A program made the translations under genes and the position numbers. Under the pieces are notes generated by a model. The model had not been told where the DNA came from. It ran no database searches and saw nothing but the letters and a program-made list of their open reading frames with translations. 64,000 nt of DNA from an uncultured Bacteroidota bacterium (lineage in GTDB: Bacteria; Bacteroidota; Bacteroidia; AKYH767-A; JABDAW01), in NCBI GenBank assembly GCA_903844645.1, contig CAIMUP010000006.1:2055-66054 (forward strand). The letters run 5' to 3'. The number at the start of each line of letters is the position of its first letter. Within the stretch, counting starts at the first letter, position 1. Positions 8,671 to 57,742 of the stretch are shown here, piece after piece.

Positions 8671-10569
8671 AAAATTATACAATAATATTGCGATGATTCC
8701 GGCTACCATCACGAAGATGTAAAAGCCGATGGCACCAGTCTGGACAAGGCGTAATGTTTTGCCTCCCCAGATAACTGTCTTGCCAATGGAGTTTACGAAA
8801 CCATCTATCATTTGTATCTCGATGATGTTGTTGAATTGCTTTCCAAACCAGTTGATCGGAGCAACAATGATGGCATCGTATAGCTCGTCTATGTAATATT
8901 TGTTGTAGATAAGATTTCTCAATGCGGGAGTCTGTTTATCATCGGCTGGAGGTACAGATGCCTTTTTGATGTAGCGGTTCATTGCCCACAAAACAATCAA
9001 TGCAAGAACTACTACTGCAACAATGATGATGGTATATTCAGCAAATTCGGAAGGGGCTTTTGCTTCGCTTTTTAAATCAGAGAATTCAAATATCGGGGCA
9101 AGATATTGACTTAAGAAATGATGTTCGCTCATGATCCTTGGCATTCCAAGAAAGCCGCCAACAGTGGAAAGGATAGCAAGAATAACTAATGGAATAGTGA
9201 TTGTTGCAGGACTTTCGTGAAGATGATGTTTCTGTTCTTCGGTGCCTCGGAAGGTGCTGTGGAATGTCAGGAAGAAAACGCGGAACATATAAATCGCTGT
9301 CAGAACGGATGTGAAACTTAATACGATGAAGATAATATTGGAGAATGGCCCGATGGTTAATGCAAGGATTTCGTCTTTAGAAAAGAATCCTGCGAATGGA
9401 GGAACGCCTGAAATGGCTAATGTTCCAAGGAGGAAGGTGATGTAGGTAATCGGCAGATATTTCTTTAATCCACCCATCTTTCTTATGTCTTGTTCGCCGC
9501 TCATAGCATGGATTACGCTTCCTGCTCCGAGGAATAATAAGGCTTTGAAAAAGGCATGTGTGGTGAGGTGAAACATTGCAGAACTATATCCTCCAACACC
9601 TAAAGCCACAAACATATATCCTAACTGGCTTACCGTTGAATATGCCAATACTTTCTTGATGTCATTCTGGAATAAACCGATAGTGGCGGCAACAAATGCA
9701 GTAAATAACCCAACAAATAAAACAATTGTTTGTGTGATTGGTGCGAGTGTGTAAAGCACGTTGCTACGAGCAATCATATAGATACCTGCCGTTACCATTG
9801 TCGCTGCATGGATTAATGCAGAAACCGGTGTGGGACCAGCCATTGCATCAGGCAACCATGTGTATAAAGGTATCTGCGCGCTCTTGCCCATTGCTCCAAT
9901 GAAGAGCAATAATGTTATCACAACTAATACTGAATCTCCTGATGCAAATCCTTTAGCTCCTTCAAAAACTTCTGCATAATTTACGCTGCCGAAGGTCATG
10001 TAGATTAAGAATATTCCCAATAAAAATCCTAAGTCGCCGATGCGATTCATGATGAAAGCCTTTTTGGCGGCATCATTGTAATCCTGATTCTTAAACCAGA
10101 ATCCGATTAATAAATAAGAACATAAACCTACGCCTTCCCAACCGATGAACATGATTACATAATTCGATCCTAATACCAACAATAGCATAGAAAAGACAAA
10201 CAAGTTGAGGTATGCAAAGAACCTTGTGAATCCTTCATCGTGAGACATGTATCCAATTGAGTAAACATGTATCAGGAAACCAACTCCGGTAATAATCAAA
10301 ACCATCAGCATAGACAATTGATCTATCAAAAAAGAGAAAGAAATATGTAATGTTCCGGAGTTAATCCAATCGAATAAATTTATGGTTGTTGCCTTATTTT
10401 CTCCGCTTAAAAACCCAAGGAAAATTGTTACAGCAATGATGAATGAACCGAGAACCGTTCCACTGGCAATGATTCCAGACAATGATTTAGTCAGGAATTT
10501 ATTTCCCAATCCTAAAATCAGGAAGCCTATCAAGGGTAATAGTGGTATCAGCCAAGCGTTTTGTATCAT
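8662..10569 (-). CDS. nuoL: NADH-quinone oxidoreductase subunit L
   Basis: The 635-aa antiporter-like subunit starts 'MIQNAWLIPLLPLIGFLILG'. It has the long C-terminal amphipathic helix region typical of NuoL. Confidence 0.9.
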   Translation of the reverse strand: MIQNAWLIPLLPLIGFLILGLGNKFLTKSLSGIIASGTVLGSFIIAVTIFLGFLSGENKATTINLFDWINSGTLHISFSFLIDQLSMLMVLIITGVGFLIHVYSIGYMSHDEGFTRFFAYLNLFVFSMLLLVLGSNYVIMFIGWEGVGLCSYLLIGFWFKNQDYNDAAKKAFIMNRIGDLGFLLGIFLIYMTFGSVNYAEVFEGAKGFASGDSVLVVITLLLFIGAMGKSAQIPLYTWLPDAMAGPTPVSALIHAATMVTAGIYMIARSNVLYTLAPITQTIVLFVGLFTAFVAATIGLFQNDIKKVLAYSTVSQLGYMFVALGVGGYSSAMFHLTTHAFFKALLFLGAGSVIHAMSGEQDIRKMGGLKKYLPITYITFLLGTLAISGVPPFAGFFSKDEILALTIGPFSNIIFIVLSFTSVLTAIYMFRVFFLTFHSTFRGTEEQKHHLHESPATITIPLVILAILSTVGGFLGMPRIMSEHHFLSQYLAPIFEFSDLKSEAKAPSEFAEYTIIIVAVVVLALIVLWAMNRYIKKASVPPADDKQTPALRNLIYNKYYIDELYDAIIVAPINWFGKQFNNIIEIQMIDGFVNSIGKTVIWGGKTLRLVQTGAIGFYIFVMVAGIIAILLYNFIR

Positions 10570-12104: not shown

Positions 12105-12181
12105 AACTAATATATTTTTATTTTATGATATTTAAGGCTGCTAAAGTATAAAAAAAGCCATTTATAAGGTAAATCACCTTG

Positions 12182-12575
12182 AAAACACCGTCGCTGGACT
12201 TCCTCCAACGGGCGTTGGAATCATCCCAACGGGCGTTGAAACCGTTCCAATGCCTTTTGGAGCCTCCCAATGAGTCTTGAAACCATTCTAACGTCCGTTG
12301 AAACCATTCCAACGGGCGTTGGAACCGTTCCAACGCCTTTTGTGCCTCTCCAACGGGCGTTGAAACCATTCCAACGGGCGTTGGAGGAAGTCCAACGACG
12401 GTCAAAAACCCTTCAAATCGCATATTCGCACCGCCGAATCCAATATTCTTACCGTCGAATCGCATTCTCACACCGCCGAATCCAATATTCGCACCGTCAA
12501 ATCGCATTCTCGCACCGCCGAATCCAATATTCACACCGTTGAATCGCATTTCTTTATGCCCGAATCCAATATTAT
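12182..12575. repeat. two consecutive 21/42-bp tandem arrays
   Basis: The first unit is 'ccaacgggcgttgaaaccatt', flanked by inverted repeats at 12187-12210 and 12379-12402. The second unit is 'cgcattctcgcaccgccgaatccaatattcgcaccgtcaaat'. ORF-track entries 12118..12585 and 12270..12542 are artefacts of these arrays. Confidence 0.9.
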
Positions 12576-48035: not shown

Positions 48036-48168
48036 CGCTTACCTGCCCATGCCGCTGTCTCACTTGCCCGTACCGCTGTCTCACTTGCCCGTGCCGCTGT
48101 CTCACTTGCCCGTTCCGCTGTCTCACTTGCCCGTGCCGCTGTCTCACTTGCCCGTGCCGTTGTCTCAC
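48036..48168. repeat. tandem array of ~6 copies with a 21-bp unit ('cttgcccgtgccgctgtctca')
   Basis: It was read directly. ORFs 47914..48183 (which encodes an 'LPVPLSH' heptad repeat) and 48022..48225 are artefacts of this array. Confidence 0.9.
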
Positions 48169-48349: not shown

Positions 48350-50233
48350 ATGAAACAAAAATTACATTCCACCAAAATCTTTGCAGCAGCCCTCGCGATG
48401 CTGCTCCTAATCCTCACCGGCAGCGTCGCCAATGCCTGCAATGCCAACTTTACCCACACCAATGTCTGTGTCGGCGACACTATCTGGTTTTATGCAGCCG
48501 ACCAATACGCAGTCTATACTTGGGACTTCGGCGACTCGACCTCGATGACCAACATTAATCATGACACCGCCACGTTTCATGTCTATCAAAACACGGGTAC
48601 CTATTACGTTACTCTTTTCGTGAATATCGGGGCAGAATGGGATTATCTGACGCAGATAATTACGGTTGGCACGACCTGTTTTAATGCAGGCTTCACCACC
48701 GTTTGTGGCGGTTCTTACATGGAAACATTTAACGATGTCAGCATCGGGAATATGACCTATCGTCGCTGGACTTTTGGGGAGCCTTCATCAGGACCAGACG
48801 ATACTTCCTTTCTTTGGAATCCGTACCATACCTATGCCGCAGCAGGGAATTACAGCGTTACCTTAATCGTATCCGATGGAGTAAATACAGACACCTTGAC
48901 GCAGGTCGTGGTCGTTCCCGCAAACTGCATCTCGGCAAATATCGGGACGAATATCATGGGTAATTGCTACAACGATTCTACGCATTACAATGTTTATTAT
49001 ACCGGCACTATCACGTCCTATTCCTGGGACTTTGGCGACCCGAACAGCGGAGCAGATAATTATTCTACGCTTGCCATTCCGGCACATCTTTACACCGCCA
49101 TCGGGACGTATGTCGTTCGATTAATTATCACGGATGGCACGAGTACCGATACGATATATAGCGTTCAGATAGTGGCAGATTGTACCTGCTGGGCAGGCGA
49201 TTGCAACCGCGATGGCGAAGTGAATGGCGAAGATATTTTCGCTATCGGCATCTATTATGGAAGCCACGGCTTGACACGACCAAATGCCAGCAACAGCTTC
49301 ACTTCGCAGCCTTCTACCGATTGGAGTTCGGTGATGTGGAACTATATGTACCTGCAAGTTTTGGCTGATAAAAAATATGCCGATTGCAATGGCGACAGCA
49401 CCATCAATTCCTTGGATATGATCGCGATTAATAACAACTATGGCATGCACCATAATACCCACAACAACCGCTCCGCAATGCCCGAAGCTTTACCAACCGA
49501 TCCTGCGATGTATCTTCAGTTTCCGGTAAGTTCCACACCCGATGGCAGTGTGATTACCGCAACGATAAATTTGGGTACATCGGCTATTCCGTTTACGTAT
49601 CTTTATGGCTATTCATTTACTATTAATTTTGATACCGCGTTGGTGATTCCAAACTCCACAACCGTTGATGTCAGCGGAAATTGGTTAGGTAATGCAACTA
49701 ATGAATTAAGCATTTCTCATGCCTATACCGACAGGATTGAGGAAGCAGTTGTTCGGTACGACCAAGTTCAGATAGCCGCAGGATACGGACAAATAGGAAC
49801 GGTTACTTTTCACATTCGCCCAAATGTTTTTGGTACGCTGCATGCCACGATTAACCCTACGGCAAAGGCTATCACAACGACCATGTTTAATAATACCGTA
49901 GCGAGTAATCAAGAAATTTTTAAACCTGTGAATTTAATGGGCAGCGACTTGGATATTTTTATCCCTGTAGGCATTAATGAAGCTGCGAGTAGTTACGATG
50001 GTATCTCTGTCTTCCCAAATCCTACGAATGAATTGTTGACCATCAGTCTTAATAAAACGGAAGCTACTGAAATTAAAATTACCAATACCTTGGGCAAGGT
50101 GGTTTACAGTGATAACGGGCAGTTCAAGACTACCCTTCAGGTAAATACATCTAATCTTTCGACAGGTATTTACTCCTTATCTTTAGTAACGAAGGACGGA
50201 ATACTTGTAAAGAAATTAAACATCATTAAATAA
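48350..50233 (+). CDS. secreted 627-aa protein with PKD domains, two dockerin-like Ca-binding repeats and a T9SS type-A sorting domain
   Basis: PKD motifs 'YTWDFGDSTSMTN' and 'YSWDFGDPNSGADN' are present. Dockerin-like 'DCNRDGEVNGEDIFAI' and 'DCNGDSTINSLDMIAI' repeats follow. The C-terminus is 'ISVFPNPTNELLTISL...GIYSLSLVTKDG...KKLNIIK'. Confidence 0.75.
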   Translation: MKQKLHSTKIFAAALAMLLLILTGSVANACNANFTHTNVCVGDTIWFYAADQYAVYTWDFGDSTSMTNINHDTATFHVYQNTGTYYVTLFVNIGAEWDYLTQIITVGTTCFNAGFTTVCGGSYMETFNDVSIGNMTYRRWTFGEPSSGPDDTSFLWNPYHTYAAAGNYSVTLIVSDGVNTDTLTQVVVVPANCISANIGTNIMGNCYNDSTHYNVYYTGTITSYSWDFGDPNSGADNYSTLAIPAHLYTAIGTYVVRLIITDGTSTDTIYSVQIVADCTCWAGDCNRDGEVNGEDIFAIGIYYGSHGLTRPNASNSFTSQPSTDWSSVMWNYMYLQVLADKKYADCNGDSTINSLDMIAINNNYGMHHNTHNNRSAMPEALPTDPAMYLQFPVSSTPDGSVITATINLGTSAIPFTYLYGYSFTINFDTALVIPNSTTVDVSGNWLGNATNELSISHAYTDRIEEAVVRYDQVQIAAGYGQIGTVTFHIRPNVFGTLHATINPTAKAITTTMFNNTVASNQEIFKPVNLMGSDLDIFIPVGINEAASSYDGISVFPNPTNELLTISLNKTEATEIKITNTLGKVVYSDNGQFKTTLQVNTSNLSTGIYSLSLVTKDGILVKKLNIIK

Positions 50234-50254
50234 AGGCATACCTTTTAATGTAAA

Positions 50255-50291
50255 CAAAAAAGCGGCACACTATGTACCGCTTTTTTGTTTT
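50255..50291. terminator. bidirectional rho-independent terminator between convergent genes
   Basis: 'aaaaaa gcggcac acta gtaccgc tttttt gtttt' forms a stem with one mismatch. An A-run lies 5' and a T-run lies 3', so it can serve both strands. Confidence 0.55.
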
Positions 50292-50310
50292 ATGATTCAG
50301 GAAGTATGCT

Positions 50311-52032
50311 TTACTTCTGCACCACAAACTTCCCTCTCACGCTCACTCCCTCTCCATTGGAGAGGGCTGGGGTGAGGCAATAGAAATAAATGCCTGCGCC
50401 CCAGGTGGAAATAGAGATGGTATTATCAATGCCGCAGAGCTTTTCTTTATAAACTACAGCACCCAGAAGGTCGGTAATAAGTAATGTTTCATTGGGGGTG
50501 TAGGATGCGTGGTGAATGTTGAGAATGGTGGAGGCAGGGTTGGGGTAAATAAAAAATTCACTTATATTCTTAGATAGTTCTTTAATACCAACCGCGCTCG
50601 GACTAACCATAAATTGCCCCATCATTCCTGCATCCTCGTGCATCAGAATATGACAATGGTACATATAAGGAACTACTGTATCTGCAAAGTCAGTGAACTT
50701 AGTAATAAATCGAACCGAGTCATAAGGTGGTACAAGAATGACATCCTTTTTTCCTTGTTCTTCAGGAGTGGCAGATATTCCATTTCTATCAAGAATATAA
50801 AAATACTCATCGTGCAGATGGAAGGGATGTGCGACCATTGTTTTATTAACCAATGTCCAGACTTCAACGCTGTTTAGTGGAATCACATAATCTATTCGCA
50901 TCATATCAAAAGTGCTATCATTAAAATAAAACGGACCGTCCATAACGGTATCGTTATCGGCTGTAAAATTAATTTGTCTGTAAGCGTTTACCTGATTTTC
51001 TTGATAAGGATTATTTGCAATTAGTGTTGAAGGAATTGTTGTTACAGGATTTGTCGTTGGTGGTACAACATTAAACTTCAGGATATTAAAATTAATGCCA
51101 TTCAAAGGACTATCCATAGGTGGTCCTCCGCTCATTGGCATCGTTGGTCCGCCTTGTATTCCCATTGGTAATTCAGCACCATAAGACATCAAATAAAAAG
51201 TCTGCCCGTTCATACCATTTAAGTTTAAAAGAATTTCAGCACGCTCACCTGGCGCAATGCGAATTCTTGTGGTATCATGTGGAAGGTCAAGCAAACCGCC
51301 ATCAGTTGCTATCTGATAAAAATGTAAAGGTGATGTAAAACCAAAATTAAAAGCTCGTTCGCCGGAAGCATTCAATAATCGTAACCGGATAACCTGTGCG
51401 GGGACATCTAAATATGTTGAATCACTATTATTTGCACGTGTTCCATTGACAAGCAAAGTGCTATCTTGCATTCCAAGTTGCATTGCCTGATTTAAGGAAT
51501 CATATTGTTGGCATTGAACAATTATTGGAAAATCATCTATGCCATATTTTCTTGGTAAAGTCAAAGTTGCTTCCGCGCTATCTCTGACAATAATTAATCC
51601 CGCAGCACCCTTGATTGCCTGAACCGCCGTTTTCATATCAAGGTGAGGATGATACCAGTATGTTGCAGCATCATTCATAACTGTAAATTGAGGATTCCAA
51701 GAAGCATTATTCAGGATAGGAGAATGTGGTCCACCATCCCACTTTGCGGGTACATGTAAGCCATGCCAATGAATAGTTGTGGTATCTCCTATTTGGTTAT
51801 TAACGGTGATATTTACATTGGTTCCATTGTTTAATATCAGGGTTGGTCCTAAGTAATGGTTTGCATTAAAGGCATAGGTTTGGGAAATCATTCCAGAGAA
51901 AAACTGAACGCTATCTTTATGCATCGTAAGGTTATAATTAGGTCCTGTTAATGTATCTGGAATGAACAATGGAGTTTGTGCAATTGTTCTTATTGCAATT
52001 AATAAAAAAATAAAGATGGTTGTTTGTCTCAT
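50311..52032 (-). CDS. multicopper oxidase (three-domain, laccase/CueO-like) with a T9SS type-A sorting domain
   Basis: The copper ligand motifs 'IHWHGLHVP', 'HPFHLHDE' and 'YMYHCHILMHEDAGMMGQF' are present. A signal peptide is present. The C-terminus 'FFIYPNPASTILNIHH...GIYFYCL...GKFVVQK' is a T9SS tail. Confidence 0.85.
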   Translation of the reverse strand: MRQTTIFIFLLIAIRTIAQTPLFIPDTLTGPNYNLTMHKDSVQFFSGMISQTYAFNANHYLGPTLILNNGTNVNITVNNQIGDTTTIHWHGLHVPAKWDGGPHSPILNNASWNPQFTVMNDAATYWYHPHLDMKTAVQAIKGAAGLIIVRDSAEATLTLPRKYGIDDFPIIVQCQQYDSLNQAMQLGMQDSTLLVNGTRANNSDSTYLDVPAQVIRLRLLNASGERAFNFGFTSPLHFYQIATDGGLLDLPHDTTRIRIAPGERAEILLNLNGMNGQTFYLMSYGAELPMGIQGGPTMPMSGGPPMDSPLNGINFNILKFNVVPPTTNPVTTIPSTLIANNPYQENQVNAYRQINFTADNDTVMDGPFYFNDSTFDMMRIDYVIPLNSVEVWTLVNKTMVAHPFHLHDEYFYILDRNGISATPEEQGKKDVILVPPYDSVRFITKFTDFADTVVPYMYHCHILMHEDAGMMGQFMVSPSAVGIKELSKNISEFFIYPNPASTILNIHHASYTPNETLLITDLLGAVVYKEKLCGIDNTISISTWGAGIYFYCLTPALSNGEGVSVRGKFVVQK

Positions 52033-52101
52033 ACTATTAGTTAAAAAAAACGGGCAGCAAACTTTTCTTGAATGCTGCCTGTCTTATCGAAGTAATGATA
52101 A

Positions 52102-52983
52102 TTATTGTTTAATAAATTTTTTGCTTATTGTTCCTTCATTGGTAATCACTTTCAATATATAATTTCCTTGTGGTAGGTTCGCAACATCAAGCGATGTAGT
52201 AGCTGTAGGATGAATCTGTTGAAAGGACTTAACCATTTTTCCACTGATGTCACTAATTTCTATGTTAACATTCTTTCCATTAATGGTACTCAAATCAACT
52301 GTCATGGTGGTTGCTACCGGATTAGGAAGAATGCTGATTGGTGTAGTCAAAGCAACTTCATTAATTCCGGCGACAGATCCTGTAAAGGCAAGCATATCTA
52401 CCCACAAATAATCATTGGCTGTAGGTGTCATACCACTTGCTCTCAAAACAATTACACAAGTATCAGGATAACCTCCATCAGCATAAACAAAATTAATGGT
52501 GAACGCTGCCCAGCTCATTGCCATACCAGACAATGTTTGATTAGCTGCTGCAACAGTAACACGTTGTCCTAATCCAGCATCCCAACGGGTAAGTAAACAG
52601 GAAACAGAACCTTGGCTACTTCCATAAATCATGTGTTGCCATTTTCCGGTTAAGCTAACGGGGCGCACTGTGCATGGCAGACCTGAATTTGGTAACATGG
52701 AAGTTGTATCCAATGTTCCGCTTACTGCAATTCCATTAACTACATTTGCCCCAATAGTTTTAGAAGTTAGTTTTAAATAAGATGCTCCAGGGCTGCCTGG
52801 TGTACCTTTCTCGCAAGTGTAAACCATAGCTGCACTTGTCATTGAATTAAGATTGCCCCAACTATCGGGCACACTGTAAGAACCCATACTGGTCCAGGTT
52901 TCAAAGCCCCCATTAGGAACTTGTGCTTTGGAAATCGTTACTACGAACATCAAAGCGAATAAAATTGTGTAAATTCTTTTCAT
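52102..52983 (-). CDS. secreted 293-aa protein of unknown function with a T9SS type-A sorting domain
   Basis: The signal peptide is 'MKRIYTILFALMFVVTISKAQ'. The mature protein begins 'VPNGGFETW'. The C-terminus is 'ILPNPVATTMTVDL...GNYILKVITNEGTISKKFIKQ'. Confidence 0.7.
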   Translation of the reverse strand: MKRIYTILFALMFVVTISKAQVPNGGFETWTSMGSYSVPDSWGNLNSMTSAAMVYTCEKGTPGSPGASYLKLTSKTIGANVVNGIAVSGTLDTTSMLPNSGLPCTVRPVSLTGKWQHMIYGSSQGSVSCLLTRWDAGLGQRVTVAAANQTLSGMAMSWAAFTINFVYADGGYPDTCVIVLRASGMTPTANDYLWVDMLAFTGSVAGINEVALTTPISILPNPVATTMTVDLSTINGKNVNIEISDISGKMVKSFQQIHPTATTSLDVANLPQGNYILKVITNEGTISKKFIKQ

Positions 52984-53014
52984 CGTTTTATTTTTTTTAA
53001 TTTATTTAAGTTTC

Positions 53015-53476
53015 TTATTTTTTATTAATCTTCTCCAAGTCCATTCCACACTTTGGACATTTACCAGCTTTATCACTTGTAACTTCGGGGTGCATTGGGC
53101 AAGCGTAGGTCATTGCAACATTCATTTTCTCGGTTTTCTTTTTACTGTCTTTTTCCATCATTGAGCATTTGTCCATCTTACCGCTCATGTCCATACATTC
53201 ACCTTCTTTCATTTGCATTTTCTTTCCGTCTTTCATAATACATTCGCCATTGGTCATACACTTAGTTCCATTTTTCATGGTCATGTCTTTTTCCATTGGT
53301 GTGGATTTTCCGTCTTTCATGCACCTCATTTTTCCGTTTTTCATCATGCAACAATCTTTCATTGCTGTAGAATCGGATTTGGTTTGTGCAAAAGAATTAG
53401 TTGCTGTAAAGCATACAACCAGCATGAGCATTGAAGCAATCATGGTGGCAATCATTTTTTTGTTTTTCATTTTCAT
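53015..53476 (-). CDS. Met/Lys/Cys-rich periplasmic metal-binding protein with a C-terminal heavy-metal-binding domain (HMBD, YxCPMHPxV...CPKCGM)
   Basis: After the signal peptide the sequence is dominated by 'MKDGK/MKNGK/MKEGEC/MMEKD' motifs, about 25% Met. It ends 'YACPMHPEVTSDKAGKCPKCGMDLEKINKK', which matches the HMBD found on Cu/Ag efflux adaptors and P-type ATPases. Confidence 0.7.
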   Translation of the reverse strand: MKMKNKKMIATMIASMLMLVVCFTATNSFAQTKSDSTAMKDCCMMKNGKMRCMKDGKSTPMEKDMTMKNGTKCMTNGECIMKDGKKMQMKEGECMDMSGKMDKCSMMEKDSKKKTEKMNVAMTYACPMHPEVTSDKAGKCPKCGMDLEKINKK

Positions 53477-53479
53477 TAT

Positions 53480-54577
53480 TTATTTCATTATCTTTTGTGT
53501 GATTATAGAATTATCCGTTTTTATTTGGATAACATAAATTCCACTTTGAAACTTAGACATATCAATGATCTTACTGGTAGCATCCAATGTTTCTTTGTAA
53601 ATAGTTTGCCCTAATACATCTGCAATAGAAATTTCCTTGAACGATTCGCCATTGGATTGAATGGTAACTTTATCGGTAACAGGGTTTGGATAGATACCAA
53701 ATAATTGACCGTTAGTAGGATTATCAATGCCTGTAGTAATAGCATCTACAACATCTACCGAAAGGATAGAAGCTGATGCCATTCTGTTTAACTGATGAGA
53801 GATACACATACTATCTATACATCCATGTCCATCAGAAATGTATAAGCAAATGGTATAATATCCAGCGGCAGCATATCCATGTCCGGGATGAGAAATAGTA
53901 TCAGAACTGTTGTCTCCCCAAGTCCATAAATAAGAGATAGGTGCTGCACCAGATGATGCGTCAACTGCCCAATAATGATGTGGATGCGTGGTATCCGCGT
54001 GAAGCGAAAAATTAGCATGGCAAGTACCGCTGTAATGATGATTCCCTACATGGAATGTATCGCAAGAATGGCAGTTATTAGAATCGGTTACGCAAACCCA
54101 ATACGTTCCGGGTGCTAAATGATCACGATAATGATTCGTCGAACCATCATTCCAAAGGAAGGTATATGGAGGCGTTCCGTTGGTAAGCGAAAGCGAAATC
54201 CAGCCATCATGACAAGTATCGCAAGTAGCGATTTGTGTGGTTCCATGAACTTCCAAATGACAATGATGGATTCCGGTAACGACAACCGAATCGCAATAGG
54301 TGTCGCAGGCATGATGATTGTCATCATACATCGTAACGCATACCCAATACGTTCCCGGGTAGTCAAAAACATGGGTAGGATTGGTAACATGGTCGTTGTC
54401 GCCATCGCCAAAATGCCAGTAAAATGTCGGAGTTGTAGGTCCGGTACTGGTGTTGGTGAAGGCGATGGTGTTGTTGGCAGTTTGATGCCAAGTGAAGCCT
54501 GAAGTGCAGGTTGCTGTAGCTTCGGAAATCGTTAAAACGAACATCAAAGCAATTAAAATGGTGTAAATTTTTTTCAT
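53480..54577 (-). CDS. His/Cys-rich PKD-domain protein with a T9SS type-A sorting domain
   Basis: PKD-like 'FYWHFGDGDNDHVTNPTHVFDYPGTYWVCVT' and 'YLWTWGDNSSDTISHPGHGYAAAGYYTICL' segments are present. Very His/Cys-dense segments include 'HHCHLEVHG', 'CDTCHDGW', 'NNCHSCDTFHVGNHHYSGTCH' and 'THPHHYW'. The T9SS tail is 'GIYPNPVTDKVTIQ...GIYVIQIKTDNSIITQKIMK'. Confidence 0.75.
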   Translation of the reverse strand: MKKIYTILIALMFVLTISEATATCTSGFTWHQTANNTIAFTNTSTGPTTPTFYWHFGDGDNDHVTNPTHVFDYPGTYWVCVTMYDDNHHACDTYCDSVVVTGIHHCHLEVHGTTQIATCDTCHDGWISLSLTNGTPPYTFLWNDGSTNHYRDHLAPGTYWVCVTDSNNCHSCDTFHVGNHHYSGTCHANFSLHADTTHPHHYWAVDASSGAAPISYLWTWGDNSSDTISHPGHGYAAAGYYTICLYISDGHGCIDSMCISHQLNRMASASILSVDVVDAITTGIDNPTNGQLFGIYPNPVTDKVTIQSNGESFKEISIADVLGQTIYKETLDATSKIIDMSKFQSGIYVIQIKTDNSIITQKIMK

Positions 54578-54604
54578 CTTTTTATTTATTAAATTATTAA
54601 TTTT

Positions 54605-56065
54605 TTATTTTTCTACCGAAAACTTTCCTTGATAAGCTTCCTTGTTATTTTTTAGCTGATAAAAATAAATTCCATTGCTCCAACGCGAGACATCAATCGA
54701 AGTATTTATACCATTAATTAATTGCTGATGAACCTCTCTGCCCGCAACATCGGTGATCAATAATTCTTGATTATCCGTCTTGGAATTGATGAAGAAATTT
54801 ACCGATGTATTCGCGGGATTAGGATAAACAACACAGCTTAAATTGCTTGACAAATTATCCGAAGCATTTGTAATAACAGCATTAAATGTTCCCTTTCTAT
54901 ATCTCACAACTCCTGCGCCATCATCTTCCCAAACCACATGAATGGTATTTATTCCAAGCACAACATCGGCATTGGTAATGTTATTCAAATCAACGGTATC
55001 ATACATTGTAGGAAACCCATTGGCAATATTATTTGTGAATAAAACAGGTAGCTGGTCATTGTTACTTACAGTTTGTTTCCAAACTATTGCTGCGGCATTT
55101 CCATTGTTTGCCATGCGGGGATAATTCTGGAGGGTTAAGCCGGAAATCGAGCCGGTCAATGCCACTGTAGGTCCTGCTGTTAAATTACTAACAGAGGATT
55201 TGCTATAATAACATCTATCCATTCCACTTGCGCCACTCATAAAAGCCGAATACAAAGTATCACCGATAATAAATCCATCAGGTCCGCTGGATGGGCAGGA
55301 CATCAACATCCAATTATTTTGATCAACCCTCATTCCATTCGTAAAAGCCGAGCCGCCATTGGTAGAAATCCCTGCCCAGGTATTACGATAATTCGCATTA
55401 GCATCGCGATAAGACATGGCAACGTTATTGCCGGAACTGATAATAGCACCCGGACAGCAATCGCAAATATATCCGCCTGACCAACCGCTTGCTAACACAC
55501 TTGGCGAAAAAGTCATTCCATAATCATTGGATTTTGCAACCGTCCAACGGGCATTGCCAAATGAAGAATTAAATCTCATAAATCCAACCAAAGGATTGCC
55601 TGAACTATTAGTGGTAACAGTCGGGAAGCGGGTAAGGCTATCATTAAAATCTACCTGAACAGGCATCGAAAAAGTCATGCCGCCATTGTAGGAATGAACC
55701 ATGAAAATATGATTGGTATCCGAACCTTCCGGCTCTCTTTTATAGACCATGTACACCGTATCGCCATGCGAAGCAATATCGGGACCAGCCCATGTTTCAG
55801 CCATTACATCATGTGTTCCGGGATTAACAGCCATAGGCGTGACAAACATACTCCCGTTCCAGCGAGTAAAATAGGCTTTCCCGCTATTATTGTCCCCCCA
55901 TAAAACCAATGGGTTTCCGGCAGCATCGAGCGTGATACGCGGATGATGGTTCTGATAACCTGCAATGGCAACAGTTATCGGAGCAGACCATGTGATTCCG
56001 CTTTGAGCTTTGGAAATCGTAACCACGAACATCAAAGCAATTAAAATGGTGTAAATTTTTTTCAT
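54605..56065 (-). CDS. BNR/sialidase-like beta-propeller protein with a T9SS type-A sorting domain
   Basis: The signal peptide 'MKKIYTILIALMFVVTISKAQ' is identical at the DNA level to the start of the 53480..54577 gene. The repeated 'S.D.G.TW' BNR-like motifs are weak. The C-terminus is 'VVYPNPANTSVNFFIN...GIYFYQLKNNKEAYQGKFSVEK'. Confidence 0.65.
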   Translation of the reverse strand: MKKIYTILIALMFVVTISKAQSGITWSAPITVAIAGYQNHHPRITLDAAGNPLVLWGDNNSGKAYFTRWNGSMFVTPMAVNPGTHDVMAETWAGPDIASHGDTVYMVYKREPEGSDTNHIFMVHSYNGGMTFSMPVQVDFNDSLTRFPTVTTNSSGNPLVGFMRFNSSFGNARWTVAKSNDYGMTFSPSVLASGWSGGYICDCCPGAIISSGNNVAMSYRDANANYRNTWAGISTNGGSAFTNGMRVDQNNWMLMSCPSSGPDGFIIGDTLYSAFMSGASGMDRCYYSKSSVSNLTAGPTVALTGSISGLTLQNYPRMANNGNAAAIVWKQTVSNNDQLPVLFTNNIANGFPTMYDTVDLNNITNADVVLGINTIHVVWEDDGAGVVRYRKGTFNAVITNASDNLSSNLSCVVYPNPANTSVNFFINSKTDNQELLITDVAGREVHQQLINGINTSIDVSRWSNGIYFYQLKNNKEAYQGKFSVEK

Positions 56066-56098
56066 CTTTTTATTTTTTTAATTAATTAGAGTGCAAAG

Positions 56099-56257
56099 TT
56101 ACAAATAATATTTGAGATAACCAAAATCCCTCCCCATTTCTTCTGTATAATTCTCGCTTTCCAAAATCTTTTTGCCTAATGCACGAAATCGAATTTCGAA
56201 CTTTGAATCAATCGCTTTTGGCATCTTTTTGTAACGTGGTTTCTTCGGTATTTTCAT
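56099..56257 (-). CDS. possible small basic protein (52 aa) between the 308-aa orphan gene and the BNR gene
   Basis: I translated this by hand. It is below the ORF-track cutoff. The sequence is 'MKIPKKPRYKKMPKAIDSKFEIRFRALGKKILESENYTEEMGRDFGYLKYYL'. There is no homology support. Confidence 0.25.
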   Translation of the reverse strand: MKIPKKPRYKKMPKAIDSKFEIRFRALGKKILESENYTEEMGRDFGYLKYYL

Positions 56258-56270
56258 TGTTATTTATTTA

Positions 56271-56303
56271 AGACCTTCAAGGATTTAAAAACCTTGAAGG
56301 TCT
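56271..56303 (-). terminator. perfect 12-bp-stem hairpin downstream of the 308-aa gene
   Basis: 'agaccttcaagg atttaaaaa ccttgaaggtct' is followed on the minus strand by an A/T-rich tract. Confidence 0.5.
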
Positions 56304-56339
56304 GGTTTCTGATTTCTAATTTTTAATTCCTAATTGACT

Positions 56340-57266
56340 TTAGATTCCTTTCACCGTTATCCATACTACATCGCAGAAACTGCCGGTGCGTTTATCGTCT
56401 AACAGATAGATTGCCTGATAGCCCCACAATGCACTTGCGCCTACTGCGGGCAATGCGCTCATGTCAGTAAAATGCGGCAATTTGGGTTTATCCAAAGCTA
56501 CCATGCCGCTTCCATTCGATGAATTTTTCTGCAATTCAACACCATCATAAATACTTTTTACATATTTGATTTCGGGATGACCACCCGCCACCAATTCCCA
56601 ACGCAGATGTGGCTTTGCCGTCAAAGGGTTAATGGAGGAATGTCCTATCTCGAAGCCCAAAGTCTCGCCATCGGTAACGCTATAAATACTCTTTTGGACT
56701 TTGATTCGCTGCACTTTCTCGCGATAGCGGGCAACGATTCCCGGAGCAACAGAAGTGGGCGGCGTGGAAACATCAACGCCCACGGGCCACGCTGATACAG
56801 AAGTACCAGTTCCGAACAACAATTCATCCCCCTTTGAGGTCCACTTTTTGGCATAAATAGGACCTTCGGTGTGCTTGGTGGCATAAAACCGAACATACGC
56901 AGCATCATTCACCACTTCGGTCACATCGGAAGCGATAAATTTGTACTTCGTGGCAAGGGTTCCCGGAAGGTTCAGAGCAAATTTATCCAACTGGTTTGCC
57001 AGCAACGGAATTTCTTGTTCAACATAATCCTTTGGCTTAACGATCGTCGCAAGAGCAATCAAGAAAGGTCTGCCCTCTATCATGATTACAGTACCCTCGT
57101 TTCTTTCCTTTTCCATCAATTCCGGCATAAGAAATTTTCCTTCCTTTCGGAGGGCAATCTCTTCAATGATTCTACGGTTTTTCATTTCTCTTTCCAGCAA
57201 TTCGTGGAAAGGAAGCATCACCCCGTTTTGGAGTGGTAAAATTTCTTTAATGTTTAAATTTTTCAT
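56340..57266 (-). CDS. hypothetical 308-aa cytoplasmic protein of unknown function (orphan)
   Basis: It is a long ORF starting 'MKNLNIKEILPLQNGVMLPFHELLEREMKNRR'. It has no signal peptide, no TM segment and no recognisable family. Its GC content is visibly higher than that of the flanking T9SS genes. Confidence 0.6.
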   Translation of the reverse strand: MKNLNIKEILPLQNGVMLPFHELLEREMKNRRIIEEIALRKEGKFLMPELMEKERNEGTVIMIEGRPFLIALATIVKPKDYVEQEIPLLANQLDKFALNLPGTLATKYKFIASDVTEVVNDAAYVRFYATKHTEGPIYAKKWTSKGDELLFGTGTSVSAWPVGVDVSTPPTSVAPGIVARYREKVQRIKVQKSIYSVTDGETLGFEIGHSSINPLTAKPHLRWELVAGGHPEIKYVKSIYDGVELQKNSSNGSGMVALDKPKLPHFTDMSALPAVGASALWGYQAIYLLDDKRTGSFCDVVWITVKGI

Positions 57267-57332: not shown

Positions 57333-57545
57333 TTATCTACGCCAGATAATGTATAATCTAAGCCAGCGGGACGCCCCGCTGACCGTGAAGGGAGCCCCGC
57401 TGACGCAAAAGGTATCCCCGCCGACCGCGAAGGGAGCCCCGCTGGCGTAAAAGGTATCCCCGCTGACCGCGAAGGTATCCCCGCTGACCGCGAAGGTATC
57501 CCCGCTGGCGCAGATAATATCCCCGCTGGCGTAAATAATCCGGAA
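57333..57545. repeat. TIR-flanked tandem array of ~8 copies with a 21-bp unit ('ccgctgaccgcgaaggtatcc')
   Basis: The TIRs are 'attatctacgccag' at 57333-57346 and 'ctggcgcagataat' at 57505-57518. ORFs 57305..57622 and 57358..57588 are artefacts of this array. Confidence 0.9.
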
Positions 57546-57656: not shown

Positions 57657-57742
57657 CTAGTAGAGTAGAGTATAGTAGAGTAGAGTATAGTATAGTAGAG
57701 TAGAGTAGAGTAGAGTAGAGTAGAGTAGAGTAGAGTAGAGTT
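57657..57742. repeat. simple hexanucleotide repeat (tagagt)n of about 14 copies
   Basis: It was read directly. ORF 57657..57896 is an artefact of this repeat. Confidence 0.9.

Follow-up and report, generated by a model that had tools for sequence, protein, structure and literature searches.

In Gram-negative bacteria, tolerance of copper is regarded as a matter of the cytoplasm and the periplasm, carried by CopA, CueO, Cus and Pco, and CueO of Escherichia coli is exported by the Tat pathway. The five genes described here, which lie in a 64-kb stretch of contig CAIMUP010000006.1 from an uncultured Bacteroidota bacterium (assembly GCA_903844645.1; hereafter the window), include a CueO-type multicopper oxidase (MCO) that is predicted to be routed outside the cell by a different machinery, that of type IX secretion (T9SS). 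They are arranged head to tail on the minus strand from 56065 to 50311 and encode, in this order, a T9SS type-A cargo protein of unknown fold (486 aa, 54605..56065; tail recognised by Pfam and NCBIfam), a histidine-rich surface protein with a PKD-SprB repeat-PKD passenger and a T9SS type-A tail (365 aa, 53480..54577; Pfam and NCBIfam), a DUF6799-HMBD protein with a signal peptide and without such a tail (153 aa, 53015..53476; Pfam), a further type-A cargo protein predicted to form a CBM/PCMD-like β-jelly-roll (293 aa, 52102..52983; tail profiles and model fold), and finally the MCO itself, with Sec signal peptide and type-A tail (573 aa, 50311..52032; Pfam and NCBIfam). A preliminary description of this DNA had named three co-directional genes, those of the oxidase, the 153-aa protein and the PKD protein, and all of these are found on the minus strand where it placed them, but they are part of a longer run, the gene at 52102-52983 inside their span having gone unmentioned and the one at 54605-56065 abutting it. 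On balance we think it probable that the set serves copper handling, by means of a surface cuprous-oxidase pair and accessory binders of periplasmic Cu(I) and surface Cu(II).

Like E. coli CueO and staphylococcal Mco, the window oxidase is a three-domain MCO with all T1 and T2/T3 ligands in place and with methionines probably near the substrate-copper region, but whereas CueO is periplasmic, the window enzyme has a Sec leader and a T9SS type-A tail that predict a position outside the outer membrane, and it furthermore has a dedicated and conserved jelly-roll partner gene. The plasmid-borne pco/cop systems (PcoA/CopA oxidase, PcoC/CopC, PcoE/SilE and CusF) likewise combine an MCO with small secreted metal binders rich in Met and His, and the logic of oxidation and sequestration outside the cytoplasm is similar. 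However, neither the 153-aa nor the PKD protein has detectable homology to PcoC, CopC, CusF, PcoE or SilE, the binders here being a DUF6799-HMBD protein and a PKD-SprB array with export predicted to proceed by the T9SS, and no PcoB, PcoD or PcoRS genes are found in the window. Known T9SS cargo proteins (proteases, CAZymes, nucleases, the adhesins SprB and RemA, and Hbp35) have the same combination of a Sec leader and a type-A C-terminal domain, and the haem-binding Hbp35 provides a precedent for a T9SS cargo that binds a metal cofactor (PMC10202324), but no function has been described for either the histidine-rich PKD subclade or the 293-aa family. Neither an oxidase nor a copper-related protein figures in the T9SS cargo reviewed in 2023 (PMC10202324). 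In addition, our literature search found no paper connecting multicopper oxidases or laccases with the T9SS; one paper holding both T9SS and oxidase terms was set aside as irrelevant, since its topic is genomic islands of Flavobacterium psychrophilum.

The three domains and the type-A tail of the oxidase hold up as first proposed. The Pfam models Cu-oxidase_3, Cu-oxidase and Cu-oxidase_2 match with 100.6, 31.0 and 89.7 bits, all above their gathering scores, and the tail is recognised both by Por_Secre_tail (PF18962; 35.5 bits against a cut-off of 27) and by the type-A model TIGR04183 (36.8 against 23). The best NCBIfam model is CueO (NF008205), but its 305.2 bits are below the equivalog cut-off of 525, and the protein is therefore best regarded as a relative of CueO rather than an equivalog. 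Among solved structures it is closest to CueO 6evg (E 3.9e-65), 6xj0 (E 2.2e-64) and E. coli CueO 1kv7 (E 1.2e-55), while CotA-type laccases are matched more weakly (E 1.1e-21 against the 3.9e-65 of CueO/Mco), and by these comparisons it belongs to the CueO/Mco clade. The four copper-ligand motifs of the superfamily (HxH, HxH, HxxHxH and HCHxxxHxxxxM) are present as HWHG at residue 88, WYHPH at 126, HPFHLH at 402 and HCHILMHEDAGMM at 459, and in an alignment of the enzyme with 119 homologues no ligand residue is kept in fewer than 99% of sequences. The same 120 sequences have four methionines without exception, M298, M300 and M306 inside a short loop (QGGPTMPM..PPMDSPLNG) and M399 three residues ahead of the first T1 histidine motif, and judged from sequence all four probably fall near the substrate-copper region of CueO. 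The leader, by direct reading, is of Sec type (MRQTTIFIFLLIAIRTIAQ), and a twin-arginine motif is found in none of the 120 family members.

The T9SS tail of the oxidase, although genuine, is not peculiar to the window gene, because it is present on all 120 of its best homologues, which are 62-75% identical and about 570 aa long. These counts refer to the best 120 only, and at least 7,982 of the 8,000 candidates scored pass E 1e-10. Judged from these sequences, the tail is the rule for a large Bacteroidota MCO family, the members of which go by the names 'bilirubin oxidase' and 'blue copper oxidase' in the source databases.

The gene directly upstream of the MCO encodes the 293-aa protein, in which PF18962 scores 54.5 bits and TIGR04183 59.8 bits, and no Pfam domain other than this tail is detected. 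Its orthologues are likewise directly upstream of the MCO at the loci L062 (67% identical), L064 (54%) and L063 (49%), and in L068 (57%) the orthologue is in the same run, two genes upstream of the MCO. The family comprises 849 matches of uniform length (about 296 aa), and when the top-120 lists of the 293-aa protein and of the MCO are compared, 22 longest-contig sizes coincide exactly, which is hard to explain unless both genes share those contigs. We can thus conclude, as far as gene order tells, that the conserved core of the locus is the 293-aa gene plus the MCO and that the PKD and Met-rich genes are accessory. The AlphaFold model of the 293-aa protein (pLDDT 74) is a β-jelly-roll, for which the best fold match is BT_2081 (3hbz, E 4.8e-8), followed by 3s30, 4het and CBM4/16 modules. 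This predicted passenger fold is shared with the PCMD-type jelly-rolls of Bacteroides (BT_2081 3hbz, BVU_0247 3s30 and BT3745 4het) and with CBM4/16 at Foldseek E values from 4.8e-8 to 1e-4, but sequence identity to these is 14-18% with no Pfam match, and the 293-aa family differs furthermore in having an invariant His/Met/Trp set and in being tied to an MCO gene and not to glycan-utilisation genes. The invariant residues are W115, Q116, H117, M118, M154, M156 and W158, and the His/Met/Met/Trp combination among them recalls the Cu(I) site of CusF, a resemblance that is a lead only.

The 153-aa protein consists of a DUF6799 domain (PF20606; residues 40-101, 90.8 bits against a cut-off of 26.8, E 4.7e-26, profile positions 1-63 of 63), rich in Met, Cys and Lys, followed by an HMBD (PF19335; residues 124-149, 57.2 bits against 23.6, E 1.5e-15). 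The motif MK[DNE]G occurs in it five times and its C-terminal sequence is YACPMHPEV...CPKCGM, just as had been described, and it is indeed rich in methionine, though at 17.6% overall and 22.6% in the DUF6799 part rather than the approximately 25% first given; the mean for long open reading frames in the window is 2.6%. The proposed kinship of its Met-motifs with CusF, CopC and PcoC is on the other hand not supported, since the likeness is one of composition and searches of Pfam, NCBIfam and the PDB detect no homology to any of the three. Nor does the notion of a suite exported in its entirety by the T9SS apply here, for although the MCO and the PKD protein have tails, neither the PF18962 nor the TIGR04183 profile finds one on the 153-aa protein. 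With its signal peptide and in the absence of such a tail, it is probably a periplasmic protein that binds Cu(I). A reading as lipoprotein was rejected by inspection, the residues ahead of the sole N-terminal Cys (LVV-C) being a misfit to a lipobox.

The HMBD is homologous to the domain at the N-terminus of Legionella pneumophila CopA (8ovl, E 2.7e-7), such that C126-P-M128-H129...C139-P-K-C142-G-M144 align to C42-P-M44-H45...C56-P-L-C59-G-M61, and the two thus have the motif C-P-M-H-P...C-P-x-C-G-M of PF19335 in common. In the Legionella domain NMR has shown that Ag+/Cu+ is bound by M44, C59 and M61 (PMC11970713), and the equivalents M128, C142 and M144 are all present in the window protein. 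The setting is nonetheless different, since the Legionella domain is a cytosolic, regulatory sensor fused to a pump, while the window HMBD is the C-terminal part of a small independent protein that has a signal peptide, behind a DUF6799 domain. The two domains are both common, and DUF6799/HMBD searches return 6,171 representative proteins at E <=1e-3, many of which have tandem HMBDs and among which a form of about 150 aa with the same DUF6799-HMBD architecture is recurrent. No paper mentioning DUF6799 was found by literature search, and papers citing PF19335 for a ferredoxin-like MXCXXC chaperone were set aside as having no bearing on the zinc-ribbon-like HMBD.

The PKD protein has the domain order PKD_4, SprB repeat, PKD_4 and Por_Secre_tail, with 62.7 bits for PKD_4, 34.1 for SprB and, for the tail, 63.3 bits with PF18962 and 61.2 with TIGR04183. 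Its reported richness in His and Cys is only half upheld. The His/Cys strings that had been quoted are all present and its His content of 7.1% is the maximum of the window, where long open reading frames average 1.8%, against a median of 1.3% in the PKD family; all 26 histidines are in the passenger (residues 23-265, where they make up 10.7%), with none in the linker or the tail. Cysteine on the contrary is constant throughout the family, with 14 residues in proteins of two PKD domains and 24-25 in those of three, in invariant columns, and since both number and positions are constant family-wide, the cysteines are by this comparison structural, as for disulfides, and nothing special to the window gene.

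The histidine-rich proteins form a monophyletic subclade of the window protein (7.1%), P0004 (5.2%), P0008 (5.6%) and P0006 (3.8%), next to a sister pair, P0002/P0003, with 3.2-3.9% His, while the remaining tree has at most 2.3%. The subclade rests on these four sequences and on three loci with readable flanks; scanning a genome collection with the four-member alignment brought up a single close relative, at the same locus as P0004. Of the 26 histidines, only 10 are invariant in the subclade and 13 persist in three or more of its four members; the conserved positions are 55, 63, 89, 104, 149, 180, 187, 200, 201 and 233. Most of the family, for example P0039 and P0040, is poor in His and lacks them. 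The AlphaFold model (pLDDT 86.9) is locally confident and all-β, and a fold search with it returns generic tandem Ig/PKD arrays only, such as GhpA and S-layers, and no analogue among metal proteins.

The copper theme of the preliminary description, which drew on linkage to the MCO, is supported by the gene content of related loci, copper-type neighbours being present at five of the six MCO loci examined. In the window the neighbour is the DUF6799-HMBD protein; in L010 an outer-membrane barrel with a C-terminal HMBD and an HYC_CC_PP (DUF8199) protein; in L063 an HMA lipoprotein, the gene of which overlaps the MCO stop codon; in L064 an HMA lipoprotein and a second HMA protein, together with a CusB-like adaptor and with a CusA/CzcA pump to which an outer-membrane factor is fused; and in L068 a CPH-type CopB-like ATPase with a His-rich N-terminus, directly downstream, followed by a Met-rich protein and DUF3347. 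The L068 ATPase is 65% identical to an enzyme in L005 that passes the copper-ATPase cut-off. The sixth locus, L062, has no copper-type neighbour. In addition, copper genes are found at all three loci of the histidine-rich PKD subclade with readable flanks, of which the window is one: in L003/L010 a T9SS-tailed MCO is one gene away from the PKD gene, and in L005 the PKD gene is beside a CusA/CzcA pump, a copper ATPase of CopB type and a DUF6799-HMBD protein 70% identical to that of the window. A fourth and unrelated case comes from a GC-rich Flavobacteriales metagenome-assembled genome (MAG), in which the gene of a PKD-repeat T9SS protein with about seven His per repeat is directly upstream of those for an HMBD lipoprotein rich in His and Met, a pump of the CusA/CzcA family and a pair of adaptors resembling CusB, one with an HMBD. 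About 40 loci with more distant PKD relatives have no copper-gene match within 10 kb, and the idea that richness of PKD proteins in His predicts a copper context was rejected as a general rule, since copper neighbours are missing beside several unrelated proteins of 4-6% His. As regards assembly, the His-rich PKD-repeat gene of the Flavobacteriales MAG (SVL2_sbin.57) appears to be split across L025 9735-10780 and L029 2-679, the split falling at near-identical tandem repeats and both contigs having similar coverage, and it is the 3' half that lies upstream of the HMBD lipoprotein and Cus-type pump.

Several smaller observations were made at these loci. A larger set of genes running in one direction is found at L068 3694-18222 (Chitinophagales MAG, ERZ27256645 k141_3728783) and L010 2021-11448, comprising two T9SS proteins that resemble thioredoxin and have a CGAC motif, an outer-membrane barrel (in L010 the one with the C-terminal HMBD), a 224-232-aa T9SS protein and the T9SS-tailed MCO, to which the L068 set alone adds the CopB-like ATPase, the Met-rich protein (483 aa) and DUF3347; from these two sets it follows that at least five T9SS cargo families travel with copper genes. 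A small Cys/His-rich protein (Pfam DUF8199, NCBIfam HYC_CC_PP) is encoded just upstream of the partner/MCO pair at L063 8578-8964, L064 8578-8964 and L010 4261-4647, and is absent from the window. L064 furthermore encodes, at 12150-12560 between the HMA lipoprotein and the CusA/CzcA pump, a secreted 136-aa protein with the His-rich stretch HYYHHAREHKD...HKHYSDHHQN and no Pfam match.

A copper role of the cluster is thus supported by comparative gene context only. While domains, tails, ligand residues, synteny and the pattern of histidines are observed, what follows on location, metal specificity, cuprous-oxidase activity and contacts between the proteins is inferred. The jelly-roll protein and the MCO would form a core pair that the T9SS carries to the cell surface, where it would act, a position on or beyond the outer membrane being expected for both from their Sec leaders and type-A tails. 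There the oxidase would most likely oxidise Cu(I) to Cu(II), which is less toxic, ahead of entry into the cell; in E. coli, CueO carries out this conversion in the periplasm. To this core the genome of the window would have added two accessory metal binders, the DUF6799-HMBD protein, which would buffer periplasmic Cu(I) by way of Met and Cys sulfur, and the surface-displayed PKD-SprB-PKD protein, which would bind Cu(II) by its approximately 26 exposed histidines and might either soak up the ion like a sponge or hand it off.

Catalogues already contain the oxidase family and the two domains of the 153-aa protein, whereas the routing by the T9SS, the dedicated partner gene and the tie between a His-enriched PKD subclade and copper loci appear to be undescribed. 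If the proteins act as proposed, Bacteroidota would oxidise and trap copper ahead of its crossing of the outer membrane. Bacteroidota are plentiful in soils, waters and guts, settings in which copper comes from fungicides, feed additives and host immunity. A more general proposal, which we regard as possible but put forward only tentatively, is that many Bacteroidota share a T9SS-delivered copper-defence layer outside the outer membrane, with a surface cuprous oxidase, a partner that binds or presents Cu(I) via its His/Met/Trp set and, in particular lineages, thioredoxin-like T9SS proteins and a His-based Cu(II) sponge built on PKD domains. Such a layer, should it exist, would extend the functions known for T9SS cargo to metal detoxification, and it would make two new metal-binding modules of the 293-aa family and the histidine-rich PKD subclade. 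The PKD proteins form in any case a natural series of close surface proteins ranging from 1% to 7% His, which lets the idea of a PKD scaffold turned metal binder be tested simply.

A number of observations nonetheless weigh against copper handling by the whole set. The MCO is below the CueO cut-off of NCBIfam (305 vs 525) and has the short Met loop only, not the long Met-rich helix of CueO, and the closest relative of the locus, L062, where the MCO is 75% identical, has no metal-binding gene beside the pair. No gene for CopA, for Cus or for a regulator is present anywhere in the 64-kb window. Along the PKD protein the histidines are no more clustered than by chance (12 pairs within four residues vs 10.6 expected, p = 0.35), the sister pair P0002/P0003 with its 3-4% His has no copper genes nearby, and the same is true of P0048, P0082, the L012 protein and the Chitinophaga-type multi-PKD proteins (L019, L021-L023), which have 4-6% His. 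Finally, the carbohydrate-binding-like fold of the partner would equally fit a laccase acting on polymeric substrates, and this leads to the main rival, in which the MCO is an extracellular oxidase of laccase type for phenolics, humic or lignin-like material or pigments, the jelly-roll and PKD proteins target or hold the substrate, and the metal binders (the Met-rich HMBD protein and perhaps the His-rich one) load the enzyme, so that the locus would be concerned with copper supply and not with defence. An extracellular site does suit insoluble or polymeric substrates, a partner with a CBM/PCMD-like fold is conserved, homologues are named 'bilirubin oxidase', and neither the L062 pair, with no adjoining metal-resistance gene, nor the window, with no efflux genes, speaks for detoxification. 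We nevertheless consider this explanation unlikely, since the closest solved relatives are the copper-tolerance enzymes CueO and Mco and not the CotA-type laccases (E 3.9e-65 vs 1.1e-21), since the invariant methionines are probably at the CueO-like substrate-copper region, and since efflux genes (CusA/CzcA and the CopB-type ATPase) directly adjoin the MCO in L064 and L068, which fits detoxification better than supply.

It could also be argued that only the MCO and the HMBD protein handle copper, the 486-aa, PKD and 293-aa proteins being ordinary T9SS surface proteins such as adhesins or stalks that are neighbours by chance, and the histidines of the PKD protein a compositional quirk of its lineage. 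This notion stems from the resemblance of the PKD model to generic Ig/PKD arrays alone (GhpA, S-layers), from the histidines being unclustered and in the subclade no better conserved than the average residue (38% vs 40% invariant), from other His-rich PKD proteins without copper neighbours, and from the fact that T9SS cargo genes often occur in runs (L007, L067 and L068). Chance is however in poor agreement with the 293-aa gene being just upstream of the MCO in five loci of different lineages, with at least 22 further contigs having the pair and with copper genes at three of three readable subclade loci plus a fourth independent case, and the stepwise rise of His along one branch of the tree is not expected from drift alone, all of which makes this explanation rather improbable. 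A surface function in iron or manganese handling, with the oxidase as ferroxidase or manganese oxidase, has in its favour that oxidation of Fe(II) or Mn(II) is established for some multicopper oxidases and that the L063 pair is downstream of a TonB-dependent receptor, a PepSY-like protein and a two-component system, but it is made very unlikely by the facts that the recurring neighbours are of copper/silver type (HMA, HMBD, CusA/CzcA and the CPH-type ATPase) and that no iron or manganese transport gene recurs among them. Copper handling by a surface oxidase pair with accessory binders is therefore the explanation that we prefer.

Concerning expression of the genes, the gaps along the run are 27, 3, 31 and 69 nt, and a single candidate promoter -7 box, TAACTTTG (56094..56101, minus strand), is found 36 nt upstream of the 486-aa gene; it is a match to the Bacteroidetes consensus TAnnTTTG only, and the sole intergenic one on the minus strand between 50000 and 57400. 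A scan for sigma-70-type promoters and terminators performed no better than on shuffled sequence. Because of the short gaps and the single intergenic -7 box, the run looks like a five-gene operon, a view based on spacing and consensus matches. Between the 293-aa gene and the MCO start there is a hairpin, GGCAGCA...TGCTGCC followed by T8 (52043..52081, minus strand; folded at -17.1 kcal/mol), which is kept at the same place in L062 (~9930-9965) and is a putative partial terminator or attenuator; it possibly causes attenuation before the oxidase and may in this way set the ratio of partner to oxidase. A strong hairpin with flanking A and T runs just past the MCO stop codon (50252..50290, minus strand; -32.0 kcal/mol for the 80-nt intergenic stretch) is likely the end of the operon, common with a convergent gene that ends at 50233. 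The GC content of the cluster (0.37-0.42) is inside the range of the window (0.31-0.47), and there is therefore no sign of recent foreign origin; the same locus furthermore turns up on contigs from metagenomes, which reach 94 kb.

The first gene of the run encodes the 486-aa cargo protein, with 52.3 bits for Por_Secre_tail and 51.8 for TIGR04183, and a relaxed Pfam scan of this and of a 308-aa protein gave sub-threshold hints alone, for example BNR (E 0.013) in the 486-aa protein. Orthologues of it are found beside the MCO in L062 (60% identity) and within the same gene run in L068 (52%). By direct reading, the 486-aa, PKD and 293-aa proteins all have the Sec leader MKKIYTILIALMFVxTISKAQ, and the first 66 nt of these three non-homologous genes, which encode it, are near-identical (56000-56065, 54512-54577 and 52918-52983, minus strand; 57/66, 56/66 and 54/66 identical), the first 41 nt being the same in the 486-aa and PKD genes. 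The leaders of PKD-gene orthologues elsewhere differ, and a similar leader ('...ALMF..AISKAQ') is found on unrelated cargo genes of L062, L010 and L068. Gene conversion or recombination at leader-coding repeats could account for the shared stretches.

Further T9SS cargo genes with Por_Secre_tail and CHU_C tails are present in the window. The convergent neighbour (48350-50233, plus strand) encodes a 627-aa T9SS cargo protein with three PKD domains and a dockerin-like segment. Its His content, at 2.2%, is unremarkable, and the protein does not seem to belong to the copper set. The T9SS cargo block as a whole (48350-57266) is flanked on both sides by intergenic repeats, namely two G+C-rich tandem arrays with a period of 21 bp, at 48044-48168 (6 copies) and 57374-57539 (about 6-8 copies), the units of which have no obvious likeness to each other, and an (AGTAG)n run of 16.6 copies at 57659-57741.

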